Origin: a virus
Lineage: Duplodnaviria; Heunggongvirae; Uroviricota; Caudoviricetes
Strand: one strand, 5' to 3'
DNA length: 15,604 nt
IMG/VR virus record: IMGVR_UViG_2657245483_000005
The stretch's first letter is position 1, and the number at the start of each line of letters is the position of its first letter. This document shows, piece by piece, positions 4,776 through 15,604 of the stretch. The position numbers and the translations under genes were made by a program. The notes beneath the pieces were generated by a model, which made no database searches, had not been told where the DNA came from, and worked only from the letters and a program-made list of their open reading frames with translations.

Positions 4776-4963
4776 CCTTTAACACCCTGCCGGGCGGTGA
4801 GGATTACATCCTTCGCCCGGCGCTCGCCTTCAACCTCGATCAGAAAGACCTCGACAGCGGTGCAGTGGACCTGTGCCGCATCGCGCTGCTTAACGATTAC
4901 CTCGATATGCGTGACGATAACGACGCGCGCGTAGCCAAATGGAGAGCCCAGAACAATGGCTGA
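4350..4963 (+). CDS. Tail assembly chaperone, -1 frameshift-extended product (GT / E+E' analogue, about 204 aa)
   Basis: The -1 frame entered at A_AAT_TTT (4721-4727) has no stop until TGA 4961-4963; I translated it codon by codon. The extension fills the otherwise ORF-free 180 bp before the tape measure ATG at 4956. Confidence 0.65.
4721..4727 (+). promoter_or_regulatory. Programmed -1 ribosomal frameshift slippery site (A_AAU_UUU)
   Basis: The heptamer fits X_XXY_YYZ in the zero frame (gga AAT TTT ttg). It is followed by more Ts and sits 16 codons before the zero-frame stop. Confidence 0.6.
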
Positions 4964-6935
4964 TACTATCCGTGATTACCTGGTCTCTCTGGGGTTCGAT
5001 ATCGACGGCGCGGGCCAGGCGAAGTTTGAAGCCACGCTCAAAGGTGTGGCCGCGAACGTCGTAAAACTGGGGGCCATAGTTGAGTCGACGGGGCTGGCCA
5101 TTGTGGGCTTCACCGCCTCGATCGCCAGCGGCCTTGATAAACTCTACTGGGCCGCGGAACGCACCGGGGCATCGGTCAACGGCATCAAGGCGCTTGGCTA
5201 TGCTGCCTCACAAACCGGCTCCAGCGCCGAGGCTGCCCAGAACTCACTGGAGAGCCTGGCGCGCTTCATGCGCAGCAATCCCGGCGCCGAAGGCTTCCTG
5301 AACCGCCTGGGGGTGCAGACCCGGGACGCTTCCGGACAGATGCGCGACATGTCGGCTATCTTCACCGGCGTCGGCCAGCGCCTCAGCAGCATGCCCTATT
5401 ATCGAGCCAATCAGTTCGCGCAGATGCTGGGCATTGACGAAAACACGCTGATGGCAATGCGGCGAGGAATGTCCGGCTTCACGGCTGAATACCAGTCGAT
5501 GATGCAGAAGACAGGCTTCGATGCTGACAGGGCCGCGCAGCAGTCCAACAAGTTCATGACCTCAATGCGCAACTTCGTTTCGCTACTGGGGATCTTGCGC
5601 GATAAGGTTGGCTCGAATCTGGCCGGCGGCCTGAGCGGCACGCTGAACAATCTCAGCAAGCAGATGCTGGAGAACTGGCCGAAGATAGAGGGCGTGGTCA
5701 CGAAGATAGTGAAGGGGGTGCTCTTTGCTGCTGATGTCATTACCCAGATGGCGTGGCGCGTCTCGCAGGCGGTAGGCGGCCTGATTGAGTGGTTTAAAAA
5801 GCTGCCGCCGGATATACAGCAGCTAATCATGCTGGTGTCCGGGCTGGTTTCGGCGTGGCAGCTGCTTAACGCTGAGTTCCTCAAATCGCCGATAGGTATC
5901 GTAATCGCGCTAGGCTCGGCGCTGTTCGCGCTTTACGACGACTACAAAACCTGGAAAGAAGGCGGTCAAAGCCTGCTGCCCTGGGATAAATGGGAGCCAG
6001 AAATAGAGGCTGCCCTGAAATCGCTTGGCGAGCTGCGGGATTCTGTGAAGGCGATAGGGGTTGAAATCGCAAAGCTGCTCAATATCAACCTCAAAAACTG
6101 GACCCTTAAAGGCGACATCGACAACCTCACTAAGCAGTTCGGTGAGTTTGGCAAGATGATTAAGATGATTGGCGACCTGATAAACGCCATCAACGAGGGG
6201 CGTTGGAAAGATGCTTATGCGATCGGCAAGAACCTGCTGGCACAAGGGCAAGGCCAGGATGCTCTACCTGCAGTATCTGACAGCGCTAACAATACTGCTG
6301 ACTGGATAGAGGGCAAGACGGGGTTCGACCCGCGAAGCATCGGGAAAACAATAAACGGGTGGATTTTCGGCAAAGAAGAGGGCGGCTCAGACCAGCAGGA
6401 GAGCGGCCCGGGCAAGACGCTGGCCGACCGTAACAACAATCCTGGCAACCTGCGCCCCGTCGGCGGCACCGGTTTTACCTCTCATCAGACGCCGCTTGAT
6501 GGTTGGATGGCAATGGCCAGGCAGATCCGTCTTTATTTCACCGGAAAAAGCGCGGCCGCCGGGTATGAAAAACTCCAGTCAATATGGGACATCATCCACA
6601 AATACGCACCTGCCAGCGACAACAACGACCCCGAGGCCTATTCGAACTTCGTAGCCAATATGATGGGCGTGGGCGCTAAGGACACGCTGAACCTGAGCGA
6701 CCCGCAGCAGTTCAGCAACCTTCTGCAGGCCATGTCCAGGAAGGAAGGTTACGGTCAGTGGAATTCCCCATTGGCCAGCGTTGCCGCTACGCAGGCAGCC
6801 GCGCAGATCAGCCAGGAAACGAACATCAATATTTACGGCGCGAGCGACCCGGCATCCACTGGCCGGGAGGTTGCCGATCGTCAATCCGGCGTTAATTCCC
6901 GTCTTACTCAGCAGCTACAACCGAGGGTCTACTGA
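4956..6935 (+). CDS. Tail tape measure protein
   Basis: 659-aa ORF immediately after the frameshifted chaperone, with a GGAGAG RBS. Ala/Gly/Gln-rich with a helical-looking composition, and the longest gene in the module. Confidence 0.85.
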   Translation: MADTIRDYLVSLGFDIDGAGQAKFEATLKGVAANVVKLGAIVESTGLAIVGFTASIASGLDKLYWAAERTGASVNGIKALGYAASQTGSSAEAAQNSLESLARFMRSNPGAEGFLNRLGVQTRDASGQMRDMSAIFTGVGQRLSSMPYYRANQFAQMLGIDENTLMAMRRGMSGFTAEYQSMMQKTGFDADRAAQQSNKFMTSMRNFVSLLGILRDKVGSNLAGGLSGTLNNLSKQMLENWPKIEGVVTKIVKGVLFAADVITQMAWRVSQAVGGLIEWFKKLPPDIQQLIMLVSGLVSAWQLLNAEFLKSPIGIVIALGSALFALYDDYKTWKEGGQSLLPWDKWEPEIEAALKSLGELRDSVKAIGVEIAKLLNINLKNWTLKGDIDNLTKQFGEFGKMIKMIGDLINAINEGRWKDAYAIGKNLLAQGQGQDALPAVSDSANNTADWIEGKTGFDPRSIGKTINGWIFGKEEGGSDQQESGPGKTLADRNNNPGNLRPVGGTGFTSHQTPLDGWMAMARQIRLYFTGKSAAAGYEKLQSIWDIIHKYAPASDNNDPEAYSNFVANMMGVGAKDTLNLSDPQQFSNLLQAMSRKEGYGQWNSPLASVAATQAAAQISQETNINIYGASDPASTGREVADRQSGVNSRLTQQLQPRVY

Positions 6936-7818: not shown

Positions 7819-8889
7819 ATGACTATTAACTGGAATCGCCATTTTGAACTGCGGCTTCTGAACGACAAGGGGAATGGCATATCCCTGTCGGACTTTAAAG
7901 TTACCTTCGCAATCGACTGGTTTAACTCGATGTGGCCACGTGTGGCGACGCTTAAAATTTACAACCTCAAGCGTGACACAATCACCCGGATTACGGGGGA
8001 TGAGTTTTCTCGCATTACCATCATAGCCGGTTATAACGGCCTGGCGCCGACGGTTACTGAAAGCGAGGTTGGGCAGGTTACCGAGATTTCATCTGAGCAA
8101 ACCGGCCAGACGCGCGGGCAAAATTACGGAGTCATTTTTGATGGGGAGATTCGTTTTACGATAACCGGGCGCGATAATCCTACCGATATTTTTACGCTAA
8201 TTCAGTCGGTAGATGGTCATAAGGCGTTCAACGAAGCCGTATCGTCCGGCAGCCTGGCGGCAGGATATAAGCTTGCCGACGTGCATACACTTCTGATGAA
8301 GGACTTTTCGCCTTACGGCATCACCCAGGGCATCACCGGGCAGTTCCCTGACAGGGTGATGCCACGCGGTCGCGTCTTCTTCGGCGCAACGCGCGACTAC
8401 ATGAGCAACCTAGCGGCGCAGTGCGAGGCTAACTGGCAATTTGTCGACGGCCAGCTGCAAATGGTGCCTGAGAATAAATATCTCCATGAAGCGATCGTGC
8501 TTAACACCAAAACTGGCCTGGTCGGTATGCCTCAGCAAACCATGGGGGCAGGCGTTAATGTGCGCTGTCTCATTAATCCAAACATTCGGGTTAACGGGCT
8601 TATTCAGTTGAACCAGGACTCGGTGTATCGCTCGCAATTACCGAACGATGAGATCCAAAGATCACAGGCAAGGATTACTGAGGCAAATGATAATGGTAAT
8701 CTTAGTACAGGCAGCGCGACGCTTGCGCAGCCCGCCAGTGTGGCAACTGATGGCGTTTACATAGTTCAGTCAATCAGCTACACCGGCGATACGAGAGGGA
8801 ATCCGTGGTATATGGATCTCATGTGTATGGCCAGAGGGGCGCGTGATTTACAATCGAATACGGCCCTACAGCGAACGGCTCCACAATGA
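7819..8889 (+). CDS. Baseplate hub protein (Mu gp44 / P2 gpD-like, tentative)
   Basis: 356-aa ORF located where the hub sits in Mu/P2-like baseplate modules, upstream of the spike, gpW-like, gpJ-like and gpI-like genes. Confidence 0.5.
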   Translation: MTINWNRHFELRLLNDKGNGISLSDFKVTFAIDWFNSMWPRVATLKIYNLKRDTITRITGDEFSRITIIAGYNGLAPTVTESEVGQVTEISSEQTGQTRGQNYGVIFDGEIRFTITGRDNPTDIFTLIQSVDGHKAFNEAVSSGSLAAGYKLADVHTLLMKDFSPYGITQGITGQFPDRVMPRGRVFFGATRDYMSNLAAQCEANWQFVDGQLQMVPENKYLHEAIVLNTKTGLVGMPQQTMGAGVNVRCLINPNIRVNGLIQLNQDSVYRSQLPNDEIQRSQARITEANDNGNLSTGSATLAQPASVATDGVYIVQSISYTGDTRGNPWYMDLMCMARGARDLQSNTALQRTAPQ

Positions 8890-9242
8890 AAAAAATACTT
8901 TTTTTGGTTTCTTTAGCATTCGTCAGTTTTTCTTCTACAGCGGCAAACACCGCTTATATGAAGTGTGGTCCCTTTACTTTCTCAACCTCATCAAGCAACG
9001 ACGGATATCCGAGGATAAACGGAGCAAAGCCTGATAGTCAGAAGGTGACATTCCTCAAAAAAGAGGGAGATTATGACAATATTAAAATGCAATGGATTGT
9101 CATGAATGAGAATTCTGGGCAGCGCTATGGTCTTGATTATATAAAACGCAATGGGAGAGGGATACTCAATGCCGAGGCCATCAGAATGAACATGAATGAA
9201 CCTCGAGTGTTTGGAACTTACGACTGCGTGAAGGCTAAGTAA
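8886..9242 (+). CDS. Small secreted protein of unknown function, cargo gene, AT-rich
   Basis: N-terminal signal peptide MKKILFLVSLAFVSFSSTAA with no lipobox, two Cys in the mature part, and composition sharply AT-richer than the flanking genes. The start overlaps the hub stop (ATGA at 8886-8889). Confidence 0.7.
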   Translation: MKKILFLVSLAFVSFSSTAANTAYMKCGPFTFSTSSSNDGYPRINGAKPDSQKVTFLKKEGDYDNIKMQWIVMNENSGQRYGLDYIKRNGRGILNAEAIRMNMNEPRVFGTYDCVKAK

Positions 9243-9251
9243 TTTAATAAA

Positions 9252-9272
9252 GGCGCCGGAACTACCGGCGCT
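9252..9272. terminator. GC-rich hairpin between convergent genes (candidate bidirectional terminator, better for the minus-strand gene)
   Basis: ggcgccgg / aacta / ccggcgct forms a 7-bp GC stem plus one G-U pair. On the minus strand it is followed by the U/A-rich tract ttattaaatt; on the plus strand the T-run is interrupted. Confidence 0.5.
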
Positions 9273-9275
9273 CAG

Positions 9276-9626
9276 TTACTCGTCTTTAAAACTTATAATT
9301 TTGTACTGCTCCAGTACTTCTGAAAGCTCCTTTGATGTCAGATTTTGTATTTCGATCGTACCTTTTTCAGTGGTTACCGTTATTTTTTTTGATGATCTGG
9401 TCTGTAACCATTTTCTCGCTATCGATGCAATGGCGATACAAGCTGGTGATGATGTGATAACGGTAATAGATATTTCGAGAATTGTGCCAATAGCGCCAGG
9501 AGAATCACCCGTTCTGACTCTTTTACTTACTACATAGTCATTAGCGGGTATGTTATCCTGGATTACAGGAAGTAACTCTTTCCAAATAGCTGGAGTAAAT
9601 TTTATGGTTGTTTCTGATTTTGGCAT
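9276..9626 (-). CDS. Hypothetical cytoplasmic protein, cargo gene, AT-rich
   Basis: 116-aa minus-strand ORF inside the AT-rich insertion, hydrophilic and balanced in composition. The plus-strand ORFs over the same DNA look like antisense junk. No strong RBS was seen, so the exact start is uncertain. Confidence 0.55.
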   Translation of the reverse strand: MPKSETTIKFTPAIWKELLPVIQDNIPANDYVVSKRVRTGDSPGAIGTILEISITVITSSPACIAIASIARKWLQTRSSKKITVTTEKGTIEIQNLTSKELSEVLEQYKIISFKDE

Positions 9627-9805
9627 AAAGGTTTCAGGCCCCTATCGAGAGAAGCTAAAAATTGCCTACCGGCTTTTCCTTAGCAGCCTGTATCTTGCTA
9701 CAAATCACGACGTTACCGTGGTTCTAAGCAAAACCTATATTAAGAGCTGCAATGAAGATAAATAGCACGCATTAACTCACCCTCAAATCCTGACATTTGA
9801 TCAGT

Positions 9806-9827
9806 AACCCGCCTCGGCGGGTTTTTT
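9806..9827 (+). terminator. Rho-independent terminator (plus strand)
   Basis: aacccgcc / tcg / ggcgggtt is a perfect 8-bp stem with a 3-nt loop, followed by tttttt; it ends 18 bp before the spike gene ATG. Confidence 0.75.
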
Positions 9828-9844
9828 ATTACCTGGAGAAAGCT

Positions 9845-10498
9845 ATGCCAGTATCAGCCCGCGCGCAGGACGGCAACGAATCGCAGACTCTTGAGGCGCA
9901 CCGCCACGCCATTTTCGGCAGCCTGCGCGTGGCTTTGCCGGGGATCATCCAGTCCTTTGACCCTGAAACAGTGACATGCACCGTGCAGCCAGCCATCTAC
10001 GGTCAGCGGCTCAGCGACGATGGCGCTCTGGTTTCTGAGGAGATACCGATTTTGCCAGACGTTCCAGTGGTGTTCCCCCGCGGCGGTGGCTGCACGTTAA
10101 CCTTCCCGGTAAAGGCCGGTGACGAGTGCCTCCTGGTCTTCTCCGATCGCTGCATCGACTTCTGGTGGCAGAGCGGCGGGGTGCAGGAACCGGTTGACCC
10201 GCGCCAGCATGACCTGAGTGATGCGTTTGCCATTGTGGGTCCGCAGTCGCAGGCGCAGAAAATCAGCAGCATCAGTACCAGTGCGGTTGAACTGCGCAGT
10301 GACGACGGTGGAACAAAACTGAGCCTTAACCCTTCATCCGGAGCGATAACGGGAACCGCGCCGGGAGGCTTCAACCTTAACGGTCTGAAAATTCTGCCTG
10401 ACGGCCGCCTGCAGCTGGTGGATGGCTCCATGGTTGATAAGCATACGCATGGCGGCGTGGAAGTCGGCGGCAGCAATACGAAACCACTGGGAGGGTAA
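9845..10498 (+). CDS. Baseplate central spike protein (gpV / Mu gp45-like)
   Basis: ATG at 9845 with GGAGA 7 nt upstream; the track's ATG at 9797 lies within the terminator. 217 aa, positioned after the hub, with an HxH motif (HTH, 10442-10450) near the C-terminus as in iron-binding spike apices. Confidence 0.55.
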   Translation: MPVSARAQDGNESQTLEAHRHAIFGSLRVALPGIIQSFDPETVTCTVQPAIYGQRLSDDGALVSEEIPILPDVPVVFPRGGGCTLTFPVKAGDECLLVFSDRCIDFWWQSGGVQEPVDPRQHDLSDAFAIVGPQSQAQKISSISTSAVELRSDDGGTKLSLNPSSGAITGTAPGGFNLNGLKILPDGRLQLVDGSMVDKHTHGGVEVGGSNTKPLGG

Positions 10499-13510: not shown

Positions 13511-14112
13511 TGGTGAAAGCAAAATTAAACAGTGCGTTTATTGCCACCGTGGCAGGTGAAATCACTGTGTACAACTACCGGGGCGACACCCGCGAATACA
13601 TATCCTCATCGGTTGAGTATCTGCCTGTGGGGGTGGGTATTCCTGCCAATTCCTGTACCGATGCGCCCGGCACACATAAAGCTGGTTATGCAATCTGCCG
13701 TTCTGCAGATTTTAACTCATGGGAATATGTGCCAGACCATCGCGGTGAAACGGTATATAGCACTGAAACAGGAGAATCAAAAGAAATCACAGCTCCGGGT
13801 GATTACTCTGAAAATACAACTACTATCGCCCCGTTAACGCCATTCGATAAATGGGATGGTGAGAAATGGGTGACCGATACTGAGGCACAGCATAGCGCCG
13901 CAGTAGACGTGGCAGAAGCACAGCGCCAGTCGCTGATTGATGCTGCTATGGCTTCCATCAGTCTGATTCAGCTGAAATTGCAGGCCGGGCGGCAACTGAC
14001 GCAAGCAGAAATCACTCGCCTTAACGCTGTGCTGGATTACATTGACACGGTGACGGCAACAGATACCAGCACCGCGCCGGATGTCATCTGGCCTGAACTG
14101 CCGGAGGCGTAG
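13510..14112 (+). CDS. Tail fibre assembly protein (Mu U / lambda Tfa-like), currently expressed orientation
   Basis: TAATG overlap with the fibre stop; 200 aa; C-terminal LDYIDTV..DTSTAPDVIWPELP matches the conserved Tfa C-terminal pattern. Confidence 0.75.
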   Translation: MVKAKLNSAFIATVAGEITVYNYRGDTREYISSSVEYLPVGVGIPANSCTDAPGTHKAGYAICRSADFNSWEYVPDHRGETVYSTETGESKEITAPGDYSENTTTIAPLTPFDKWDGEKWVTDTEAQHSAAVDVAEAQRQSLIDAAMASISLIQLKLQAGRQLTQAEITRLNAVLDYIDTVTATDTSTAPDVIWPELPEA

Positions 14113-14527
14113 GCCATTCAATATCTGGAGCACTGGAGGTATCAACCAGTTCCAGTGCGTCCAGATAATCCAGCCACAAATTATATTGCGCCAGTTCCTC
14201 ACTTTTCAGACGACCAATCGCCGCTTTGCCAGGCCACTGATGAGTATTGATGTAGGTATTGACTTCAGAAACCAAAGATATTTTTTTCATTTCAGCCGTC
14301 AACACCTCATCCTCTTTTGAAGGGGGTGGGGAATTAATCCATACTGGCCGTCCTGAACTGTCAGCGCCAATTTCTTTCCCTTCTGGATGCAGCCCAAGAA
14401 ATTGCTCATATGTTTCTCTGGTAATTTCAATAACATCATCAGGAAGCGTTCCCGCATCCTCATATTCTGGAAACAATTCTTGCAGATAAAAACTTTTACT
14501 TCCGGGTGAAAAGAATACTGAGTTCAT
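14084..14527 (-). CDS. Alternative tail fibre assembly protein (U'-like)
   Basis: Minus-strand 147-aa ORF with C-terminal LDYLDALELVDTSSAPDIEWPTPP, matching the Tfa pattern; located directly downstream of the minus-strand fibre tip. Confidence 0.7.
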   Translation of the reverse strand: MNSVFFSPGSKSFYLQELFPEYEDAGTLPDDVIEITRETYEQFLGLHPEGKEIGADSSGRPVWINSPPPSKEDEVLTAEMKKISLVSEVNTYINTHQWPGKAAIGRLKSEELAQYNLWLDYLDALELVDTSSAPDIEWPTPPAVQAR

Positions 14528-14529
14528 TC

Positions 14530-14982
14530 TTACCGTCCAATGATTAATGCTGAGACGCTGGTATCTGAAGGAAAGGCTGCATTCAGTGGTTTGTCGACTT
14601 TGAACACAATCGTATTATTCCCCCTGACAGCGGCAAAAGAACAAACCGCAGTCGCGTATGAACCTGTAATATTACTGGATACACCACCATAAGCTGTTGT
14701 TGATACCAGAGGGATAACGCCCAGCACCTTATTAGGAAATACAAAGGGCAATGTGGCTGTGGCAATATAAGACTTATTAGAACCTGTAATGGCATAAGCA
14801 TTATCAGTCATTCCATTCATCGCCACCGGGCCGCTTATACTTACAGTAACCATCTGAATGATTAGCCCGTCAGGTTGACGAATCACAAAATTTCCATTGC
14901 CACCAGTAACCGTCCAGAAAGACATATCAGGGATTTGGTTTTCCCCGTTGCCCACATTCCGTTTTGCCGCTTCTCCCAAACC
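14530..14982 (-). CDS. Alternative tail fibre C-terminal cassette (Sv'-like), startless, fused to the fibre gene only after inversion
   Basis: Minus-strand frame open from the right crossover site to the stop at 14530. The sequence after the core encodes GLGE, the same residues that follow the core in the plus-strand fibre, and the frame matches. Confidence 0.7.
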   Translation of the reverse strand, partial: GLGEAAKRNVGNGENQIPDMSFWTVTGGNGNFVIRQPDGLIIQMVTVSISGPVAMNGMTDNAYAITGSNKSYIATATLPFVFPNKVLGVIPLVSTTAYGGVSSNITGSYATAVCSFAAVRGNNTIVFKVDKPLNAAFPSDTSVSALIIGR

Positions 14983-14996
14983 AACCTTTTTTATAA
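14971..14996. repeat. Right crossover site of the invertible segment (hix/gix-like)
   Basis: ttctcccaaaccaaccttttttataa, central AA at 14983-14984; the inner 14 bp are identical to the inner half of the left site in inverted orientation. It lies 60 bp upstream of the invertase ATG. Confidence 0.7.
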
Positions 14997-15026
14997 CCAT
15001 CAAAAATCTGGTGATGCTTCGCCGTT

Positions 15027-15049
15027 TCTCCTGTTTTCATAACAGGAGA
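15027..15049 (+). promoter_or_regulatory. Perfect 9-bp stem hairpin that includes the invertase Shine-Dalgarno
   Basis: tctcctgtt / ttcat / aacaggaga; the right arm contains AGGAG, 7 nt before the ATG at 15056. Confidence 0.5.
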
Positions 15050-15055
15050 AATCCC

Positions 15056-15604
15056 ATGATTTACGGTTATGCCCGAGTATCAACAAACCACCAGGACACT
15101 GAATTGCAACTAACGGCGCTCAAGTCAGCGGGTTGTGAGAAAATTTTTGAAGAGCATGCCAGCGGGAGGAAATCGAATCGGCCGGTTCTAAAACGGCTGA
15201 TCGCCACTATGCAGCCGGGGGATGAACTGGTGGTCTGGAAGCTGGACAGGATAGGCCGCAACGTTCTGCATGCGCTGTTGATGTTCCAGCAGTTACAGGA
15301 AAAGGGTATCAACTTCCGCAGTATTACCGATGGCGTGGATCTCAAAACAGCCAGCGGCCGCTATAACTTTCGTAACATCCTTTCCGCAGCACAATATGAA
15401 TCTGATCTTAATAGCGAACGTACCTTAGCAGGGCTGGCCGTAGCCAGGGCAAAAGGGCGAGTTGGTGGTCGCAGGCCTAAGTTCACGGATGAGCAATGGC
15501 GGGAAATGGGGGAGCGGATGGCAACCGGTGAATCACGACAAAGCGTATCAAAAACGTATGGAGTAGGGCTCTCAACTCTGTATAAAAAGTTTCCAGCTAG
15601 CTGA
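15056..15604 (+). CDS. Serine DNA invertase (Hin/Gin/Cin/Pin family)
   Basis: Starts MIYGYARVSTNHQDTELQ, with the catalytic Ser in the RVST motif, and has a C-terminal helix-turn-helix (GESRQSVSKTYGVGLSTLYKKFPA). The track ORF begins at 14897, but the family-conserved N-terminus and RBS place the start at 15056. The stop is at the window end. Confidence 0.93.
   Translation: MIYGYARVSTNHQDTELQLTALKSAGCEKIFEEHASGRKSNRPVLKRLIATMQPGDELVVWKLDRIGRNVLHALLMFQQLQEKGINFRSITDGVDLKTASGRYNFRNILSAAQYESDLNSERTLAGLAVARAKGRVGGRRPKFTDEQWREMGERMATGESRQSVSKTYGVGLSTLYKKFPAS

Follow-up and report, generated by a model that had tools for sequence, protein, structure and literature searches.

Here we analysed a 15,604-nucleotide stretch of DNA from a virus of the class Caudoviricetes (IMG/VR record IMGVR_UViG_2657245483_000005), referred to in its entirety as the window, with a focus on the gene at 8886-9242, which directly follows the baseplate hub gene and encodes a 118-amino acid (aa) precursor of a predicted exported protein. 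Comparative data establish its product as an accessory and diversifying protein, predicted to be exported, that is encoded in a defence-rich slot beside the tail-tip genes, and a block to phage entry at the envelope appears to be its most economical function. Specifically, we infer, with a probability of roughly 0.45, that this protein is an allele-specific entry block at the envelope (superinfection exclusion) that would be made late, exported by Sec and not be part of the virion. The first-pass annotation of the window, made from the sequence letters, had singled out this gene; the wider pattern reported here goes beyond it, and comprises a slot between the hub and spike genes, non-homologous exported proteins, allele swapping and tandem arrays. 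The hub gene and the features of the exported-protein gene are as follows.

7819-8889, plus strand: baseplate hub gene (phrog_196, 3.8e-83; NCBIfam NF047561; weak match to PF22759, E217_GP41)
8886-9242, plus strand: exported-protein gene, stop codon included (118-aa precursor; open reading frame list; RefSeq WP_053271603.1; phrog_3443, 3e-43; 46 homologues)
8886-8889, plus strand: ATGA start/stop overlap with the hub gene, no Shine-Dalgarno sequence evident upstream
8886-8945, plus strand: residues 1-20, predicted to be a Sec signal peptide that is cleaved behind A19 or A20 (heuristic scoring; layout kept in 38 of 39 members)
8946-9239, plus strand: mature domain of ~98 aa, predicted eight-stranded up-and-down beta-barrel (structure prediction)

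The first-pass annotation had proposed a 118-aa open reading frame (ORF) that overlaps the stop of a baseplate hub gene and is translationally coupled to it, and each part of this proposal was borne out. The ATG at 8886-8888 overlaps the TGA (8887-8889) of the hub ORF, the RefSeq annotation uses the same start codon, and the neighbour matches hub families in both PHROG and NCBIfam. Since the two genes overlap and no Shine-Dalgarno sequence is evident, translation of the exported-protein gene is probably coupled to that of the hub, suggesting that the protein is made with the late genes; this arrangement recurs in related loci, where the start of the family gene lies within a few bases of the hub stop. 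We take the ORF to be a genuine conserved gene and not a chance ORF because it has 46 homologue clusters (90% identity; E ≤ 1e-22) and 16 invariant alignment columns. Some homologues are represented in the databases by 94-aa forms that begin at an internal methionine, but this methionine is not conserved in the family and the long form was therefore taken as the real one.

The protein matches PHROG 3443, a family without assigned function, over residues 4-117 (positions 3-113 of the 115-position profile), and has no match in Pfam (E ≤ 0.1), NCBIfam or PADLOC. A profile search of 1.84 billion representatives at 50% identity returned 58 matching proteins; three weak, multi-repeat matches (P0094, P0102 and P0103) were judged spurious. 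When one genome per species was scanned we found 45 loci, all in Enterobacterales except for one entry labelled Chryseobacterium, which is probably contamination. The hosts are Enterobacterales of gut, plant, insect and water, and occurrences recorded as plasmid-borne proved to lie either in prophages or in phage genomes of 37-45 kb that are episomal. The first-pass annotation had suggested a check for homologues at other prophage insertion hotspots, but in every one of the ∼120 loci examined the family gene adjoins the hub gene of this one myovirus lineage. It had also failed to recognize motifs of the lysozyme inhibitors MliC/PliC and Ivy, and likewise our Pfam search (E ≤ 0.1) returned neither PF09864 (MliC/PliC) nor PF08816 (Ivy); the CKPHDC loop of Ivy is absent from the sequence. 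No homology to known envelope superinfection-exclusion proteins was found in comparisons with SimA, SimB and SimC, in PADLOC, Pfam and NCBIfam, or in fold searches, and in the literature searched we found no study of the PHROG 3443 family or of the hub-spike slot.

Export was assessed by heuristic scoring of the n-, h- and c-regions, comparatively across 39 aligned family members. The N-terminus of the window protein (MKKILFLVSLAFVSFSSTAA-NTAY) has a charge of +2 (two lysines), a hydrophobic h-region (best 10-residue Kyte-Doolittle mean of 3.09), small residues at -3/-1 and no lipobox, and by this scoring has the features of a Sec type I signal. The same layout is present in 38 of the 39 members though the N-terminal sequence itself is not conserved, and the only non-conforming member is an N-terminally truncated gene call. 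In the AlphaFold model residues 3-16 form a low-confidence helix, with a mean predicted local distance difference test score (pLDDT) of 59 over residues 1-20 and ∼92 for the remainder, and several homologues carry the UniRef name “Secreted protein”. The N-terminus is thus predicted to act as a Sec signal peptide across the family, and to lack a lipobox in this member, as the first-pass annotation had proposed; the mature protein would then reside in the periplasm. The two cysteines which that annotation had pointed out, Cys27 (8964-8966) and Cys114 (9225-9227), do not vary among the 39 aligned members or among 58 representatives (85% identity), and probably form a disulfide that clamps the barrel. 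The mature part is conserved overall, with C27, N45, L94 and C114 among the 16 invariant residues and with variation concentrated in two hypervariable segments (residues 29-43 and 71-80). A fold search had been recommended: the mature domain is predicted to be a small eight-stranded up-and-down beta-barrel, but no specific structural relative turned up, since Foldseek returned no match at E ≤ 0.001. Avidin and lipocalin (calycin) barrels are only 5-13% identical in sequence to the exported protein, a generic resemblance that carries no evidence of shared ligand binding. Nanobody matches in a sequence search of solved structures were weak (E ≥ 0.002) and were judged to be due to chance.

To place the gene in context we sampled 80 virus contigs with a related hub (60-100% identity), in which 72 loci were evaluable. 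The family gene lies directly after the hub in ∼61 of these 72 loci and in all 45 of the genome loci, and in 72 of 72 the first gene after the hub encodes an exported protein. Elsewhere the position is taken by unrelated lipoproteins of ∼240-354 aa (cluster 3) in 7 loci, by a 183-aa Sec protein in 3 loci and by a 79-aa Sec protein in a single locus, and no match to a described family was found for these substitutes. Export therefore appears to be a conserved feature of the first slot position. Uncharacterised lipoproteins take the position of the family gene in L071, L072, L074, L017 and L043. Two proteins at the same position after the hub, P0050 and P0056, join an N-terminal lipoprotein domain (A) to a C-terminal family domain (F), so that the comparison with T5 Llp made in the first-pass annotation is apt in a further respect, these relatives being lipoproteins with the same domain. 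Domains are shuffled among the slot lipoproteins (Lipo-A-F, Lipo-A-B and Lipo-B), domain A also being fused to the unrelated domain B. No slot lipoprotein has Asp at +2, and by the E. coli sorting rule their destination would therefore be the outer membrane. A second family of small Sec proteins (phrog_13007) often provides the second gene of the slot.

The borders of the slot could be placed by DNA homology, and are given here with the gene that follows.

8858-9805, no strand assigned: replaceable accessory cassette containing the hub tail, the exported-protein gene and cargo (DNA homology breaks; G+C ∼0.41)
9806-9823, plus strand: conserved intrinsic terminator, AACCCGCCTCGGCGGGTT then TTTTATTA, marking the right edge of the slot and lying 22 nt before the spike ATG
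9845-10498, plus strand: gene for the central spike (N-terminal domain PF18352; Apex motif matched weakly, below cut-off)

The DNA homology of the window to locus L016 (92-95%) ends at 8857, 29 nt before the hub stop, and resumes exactly at 9806, where homology with L018 and L019 likewise resumes. From these limits we defined the replaceable cassette as 8858-9805, and the last ∼10 hub codons (from ∼8858) consequently fall inside it. The G+C profile gives ∼0.41 for the cassette versus ∼0.53; the family gene itself has a G+C of 0.458, whereas that of the hub is 0.529 and that of the spike 0.560, and in 62 of 65 loci the family gene is poorer in G+C than the hub. The hairpin of the terminator is AAACCCGC-TTCG-GCGGGTTTTTTAT, and in 71 of 75 related loci, whatever their cargo, a comparable hairpin and T-run begins 34-43 nt ahead of the start of the spike gene. 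The terminator lies inside the late tail operon, whose genes resume at the spike, and coincides with the exact right limit of the DNA homology breaks. It may serve as a recombination anchor, and its position upstream of the spike implies Q-dependent read-through for the baseplate genes; a Q-type antiterminator gene is present elsewhere in the prophage. An Rfam scan over 8500-10100 returned nothing. Atypical composition, insertion between genes that are adjacent in relatives and a downstream terminator are among the marks of a phage moron, an autonomous unit of promoter, gene and terminator in a prophage, and these three are found here.

The exported protein appears to be accessory, that is, dispensable for the virion and not part of it, because the hub and spike genes are adjacent in sister-lineage loci and in cyanophage Pam3. 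The tail gene order of the window is collinear with that of Pam3, in whose solved virion a complete baseplate is built of gp17-gp24 and the hub gp19 is encoded directly beside the spike gp20 (PMC9942802). In a sister lineage, whose hub is 43% identical, the plug, hub and spike genes are adjacent without an insert in 13 of 16 loci. A protein absent from these 13 loci and from the Pam3 baseplate does not behave as a baseplate structural protein. In two loci of the sister lineage (L144 and L096, from marine and other metagenome phages) a family gene instead lies between the plug and hub genes, overlapping the plug gene by 4 nt, and a third (L159) has a different Sec protein at the plug-hub junction. 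Accessory genes for proteins predicted to be exported have thus settled beside the hub gene twice, at two different junctions.

The family gene is also the most divergent of the module, with a mean pairwise distance of 0.44 versus 0.25-0.40 for the other genes. In seven pairs of loci the hub and spike are less than 10% divergent while the exported-protein gene is ∼50% divergent, indicating that alleles are swapped between otherwise near-identical tail modules. The allele of L016 has 48% identity to that of the window, against 93-99% identity for the tail genes. Some loci carry arrays. In Serratia aquatilis (L105, L100) the hub and spike genes are separated by seven copies in tandem, including a frameshifted one; three of the seven are nearly identical over their C-terminal half, their differences being confined to the first ∼35 mature residues. 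In Pseudescherichia vulneris (L120, 1-2900) a unit made up of a hub C-terminal fragment (∼65 residues) and an allele occurs four times, with a different allele each time, and the hub fragments differ mainly in their last 10-13 residues.

The genes that follow the first slot gene include PD-Lambda-1 (1e-80), an Mrr-type nuclease (Mrr_cat), Phd/Fic and, in the window, EACC1, as well as many unassigned genes, some of them exported, and several two-gene sets without a family match. The hub-spike gap is therefore a defence-gene hotspot in this prophage lineage (L047, L054, L056, L069, L068, L031 and L009). Its cargo in the window consists of the following features.

9253-9271, minus strand: G+C-rich hairpin between convergent genes, with its T-rich tail on the minus strand
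9276-9626, minus strand: solitary EACC1-domain cargo gene, 116 aa (PF19953, 1.1e-6, above the curated cut-off; RefSeq name)

Since its T-rich tail is on the minus strand, the hairpin is mainly the terminator of the EACC1 gene. A 2025 preprint (10.1101/2025.11.14.688446) describes EACC1 as an effector that forms pores upon activation by a protease encoded beside it. We found no protease gene beside the EACC1 gene of the window, and EACC1 homologues occupy the same slot in only six related loci. We treat this gene as a neighbour of the exported-protein gene to which any functional link is putative. An ORF on the plus strand at 9550-9765 (71 aa) was treated as spurious because it has no family match and overlaps the start of the EACC1 gene.

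The window represents the tail module of a complete prophage of ∼40 kb that lies between kch and yciI/tonB in E. coli, and is 100% identical to NZ_CP062811; E. coli NCTC11023 shows 99.8% identity across the region studied here. Its genes encode, in order, the sheath, tube, chaperone, tape measure, a Dit-like tube initiator, a plug similar to Pam3 gp18, the hub, the exported protein, EACC1 (minus strand), the spike, the sheath initiator, J-like and wedge proteins, a fibre and fibre chaperones, and end in an invertible fibre segment with its invertase. This segment (14084-15604) holds an alternative fibre C-terminus (14530-15003, minus strand) and its chaperone (14084-14527, minus strand), which face the expressed fibre and chaperone genes and lie beside a resolvase-type invertase gene (14897-15604, plus strand) that is cut by the window end. 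It looks like a host-range switch in the style of Mu Gin and P1 Cin. Invertible fibres of the Mu/P1 type use lipopolysaccharide (LPS) as their receptor. The lysis cassette is located elsewhere in the prophage and comprises a class II holin, an endolysin with an N-terminus resembling a signal-anchor-release (SAR) sequence, and an Rz1-like gene. The endolysin (9558-10309 of L093, the same prophage outside the window) has the SAR-like N-terminus LSAAVLGLILAGASAPVIL and is partnered by the 71-aa holin, which suggests a pinholin/SAR-endolysin system. The tape measures of some close relatives (L006, L010 and L011) contain a lytic transglycosylase (SLT) domain, whereas that of the window (4956-6935) has none at E ≤ 0.01, so tail-borne wall-degrading activity is polymorphic in the lineage.

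With respect to the timing of expression, no sigma-70-like promoter was found upstream of the exported-protein gene in the window. Most relatives have TTTATA-17-TATACT ∼100 nt upstream, inside the hub gene, where the window clade has TACACC. The TAT-ACT codons occur in 50 of 72 distinct sequences versus ∼14% predicted from codon usage, a comparison that is confounded by shared ancestry and coding conservation. The conserved terminator would halt transcription that is not Q-modified before the spike gene, which fits, without proving, some transcription of the slot in lysogens.

We propose that the accessory protein would be synthesized alongside the late tail proteins, that Sec would export it and its signal peptide would be cleaved, and that the ∼98-residue beta-barrel would fold in the periplasm, probably with a Cys27-Cys114 disulfide. 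Its target there would be either one of the proteins of an incoming tail tip (the hub, the spike or the tape measure) or the partner in the envelope that this tip requires, and it would act after adsorption and before DNA reaches the cytoplasm, in the manner of T4 Spackle and P1 Sim. We favour a block after adsorption over other envelope-level mechanisms because the prophage has an invertible fibre module of the Mu/P1 type and because the gene is linked to the hub and not to the fibres. The apparent conservation of export at the first slot position counts for exclusion, as do the accessory, non-structural character of the protein, the defence-gene neighbours, the linkage to the hub gene at two sites, the location of the lysis genes elsewhere and the precedents of Spackle, Llp and Sim. 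The diversification of the family, seen in its divergence, swapping, hypervariable segments and arrays, fits a function in specificity, and being a phage accessory protein with a predicted envelope location is a feature that it would share with the envelope exclusion proteins Sp, Sim, Llp and Cor.

Several observations weigh against this interpretation. The main weakness is timing, as exclusion would be served better by a protein present in the lysogen than by one that appears late and whose value as a block is less obvious, and the coupling to late genes together with the lack of an upstream sigma-70 promoter in the window means that the protein may not be made in the lysogen, where exclusion would be most useful; protection of progeny, the “anti-Kronos” idea, offers one way round this difficulty (bioRxiv 10.1101/2024.03.05.583538). 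Exclusion is a putative function for any member of the family, and the searches described above gave no link in fold or sequence to any known exclusion protein. The 16 invariant residues and the conserved core are compatible with a conserved host target as well. Arrays occur in only 2 of ∼120 loci, a further locus (L095) having one full copy and a partial second. Finally, co-evolution with a tail-tip protein was considered and rejected: allele distances track those of the adjacent hub (rho 0.59) but not those of the tape measure (0.22) or the spike (0.34), as linkage predicts, and since the latter values are no more than linkage would give, no cognate tail-tip partner is indicated.

Other functions have to be weighed against an entry block. 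The first-pass annotation had suggested receptor masking or superinfection exclusion; an accessory envelope role of the moron kind fits the low G+C, the swappable cassette and the defence neighbours, but masking, one of several conceivable mechanisms at the envelope, is the less likely one because the prophage has a Mu/P1-style invertible fibre segment and such fibres use LPS. Masking at the outer membrane, in the style of T5 Llp or of phi80 and N15 Cor, would have the protein bind the periplasmic face of an outer-membrane receptor protein and block adsorption or triggering, sparing progeny from the debris of lysed cells, and we consider it unlikely. An LPS receptor is not maskable by a periplasmic protein, and a Mu/P1-like module, in which the genes of two fibre chaperones and of an invertase accompany an invertible segment, is just what this prophage carries. 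Furthermore, the window member lacks a lipobox and would be soluble instead of lipid-anchored, and its gene is linked to the hub and not to the fibre genes. Masking would nevertheless account for the lipoprotein versions of the family domain and the unrelated outer-membrane lipoproteins in the same slot, late expression would suit the protection of progeny (“anti-Kronos”; bioRxiv 10.1101/2024.03.05.583538), and there are precedents in Llp (PMC9586334) and Cor (PMC11436027). The chances are slimmer that the protein benefits the host as a lysogenic-conversion gene, acting in envelope stress, serum or colonisation as lambda Bor and Lom do. Such a gene could well have the moron-like low G+C, the terminator at the end of the slot and the predicted envelope location, yet it would hardly be tied always to the hub gene, coupled to a late gene without a promoter of its own found in the window and surrounded by anti-phage genes, and the gut, plant, insect and water Enterobacterales that carry the family have no evident common niche.

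It is equally improbable, in our view, that the protein inhibits or buffers a peptidoglycan enzyme in the way that MliC/PliC and Ivy do, with the prophage's own SAR endolysin (until the pinholin fires) or a tail-borne lytic transglycosylase as candidate targets. MliC/PliC and Ivy are likewise small periplasmic proteins with a disulfide, the one in the window protein being probable, and MliC/PliC are eight-stranded beta-barrels too. In favour of this are the expected late synthesis, the small predicted barrel with its putative disulfide, which resembles several lysozyme inhibitors, the class II holin and the SAR-like endolysin N-terminus of the prophage, and the SLT domains in the tape measures of some relatives. 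However, the gene lies outside the lysis cassette, the window tape measure is without an SLT domain at E ≤ 0.01, and replacement by lipoproteins, allele swapping and arrays do not agree with one conserved target enzyme. A role in tail or baseplate assembly, or as a minor component of the virion with a hydrophobic N-terminus that is not a signal peptide, is suggested by the position within the tail operon and by translational coupling to a structural gene, but is largely excluded: the protein is missing from most sister-lineage loci and from Pam3, which has a complete baseplate, lipoproteins can take its place, it is swapped between identical tail modules, and it occurs in arrays of 4-7 copies.

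A more specific form of the entry-block proposal, which we regard as a long shot, is that the swappable unit is a matched pair, made up of the variable last 10-15 residues of the hub and a periplasmic barrel that recognizes this tail on an incoming phage. A pairing signal between hub tails and alleles was looked for, but cannot be separated from linkage. If the matched pair were true, the cassette would act at the tail tip as a polymorphic lock that tells self from non-self and is inherited as one unit, as toxin-tip/immunity pairs are, and the orphan arrays of hub fragments and alleles would widen the range of excluded phages.

A phage accessory envelope protein encoded beside tail genes is of a known kind, and several characterized systems are instructive. 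Like the prophage studied here, P1 is a temperate myovirus with invertible fibres, and its simA, simB and simC are tandem signal-peptide genes beside tail genes that are annotated as superimmunity genes. P1 Sim acts after adsorption. The Sim proteins differ in having no sequence similarity to the family, in size (SimC has 264 aa) and in being expressed from their own sigma-70 promoters without coupling to a structural gene. T4 Spackle (Sp, gp61.3) is a periplasmic inhibitor of the T4 tail spike lysozyme that binds the lysozyme domain of gp5 (PMC7677548); it too is a small, soluble, exported phage protein that blocks a contractile-tailed superinfecting phage after adsorption, but has no homology to the family. 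T5 Llp, an outer-membrane lipoprotein (PMC9586334), and phi80/N15 Cor are also small proteins of the envelope; their genes adjoin tail genes, and they keep phages out at this level (PMC9586334; PMC11436027). Llp and Cor are lipoproteins that bind the receptor FhuA, whereas the window protein has no lipobox and no homology to either, and the fibre module of its phage suggests LPS as the receptor. The layout of the P. vulneris array is formally the same as that of the orphan toxin-tip/immunity arrays of contact-dependent inhibition (CDI) and Rhs systems, but the upstream gene here is a baseplate hub without a toxic domain, and the repeats may merely mark recombination sites.

To our knowledge, the phage envelope proteins that stop other phages at entry are few and were mostly found singly (Sp, Imm, Sim, Llp, Cor and SieA). 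The family with its fold assignment, the fixed slot and its terminator border, the rule that the first gene is exported, and the arrays appear to be new, as none was described in the literature searched. Our analysis defines a type of locus, a fixed slot between hub and spike in widespread Enterobacterales prophages, in which the exported first gene comes from at least four unrelated families. Should the function of these proteins be a different one, the strict rule that an exported protein follows the hub would still need explaining. If they are entry blockers, the slot would be a compact and easily tested source of new exclusion proteins, its natural allele series could be used to map specificity, and it would give access to a poorly understood stage of DNA delivery by contractile tails, the one in the periplasm, with a bearing on the prediction of phage host range in lysogens of Klebsiella, E. 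coli, Salmonella and Serratia.

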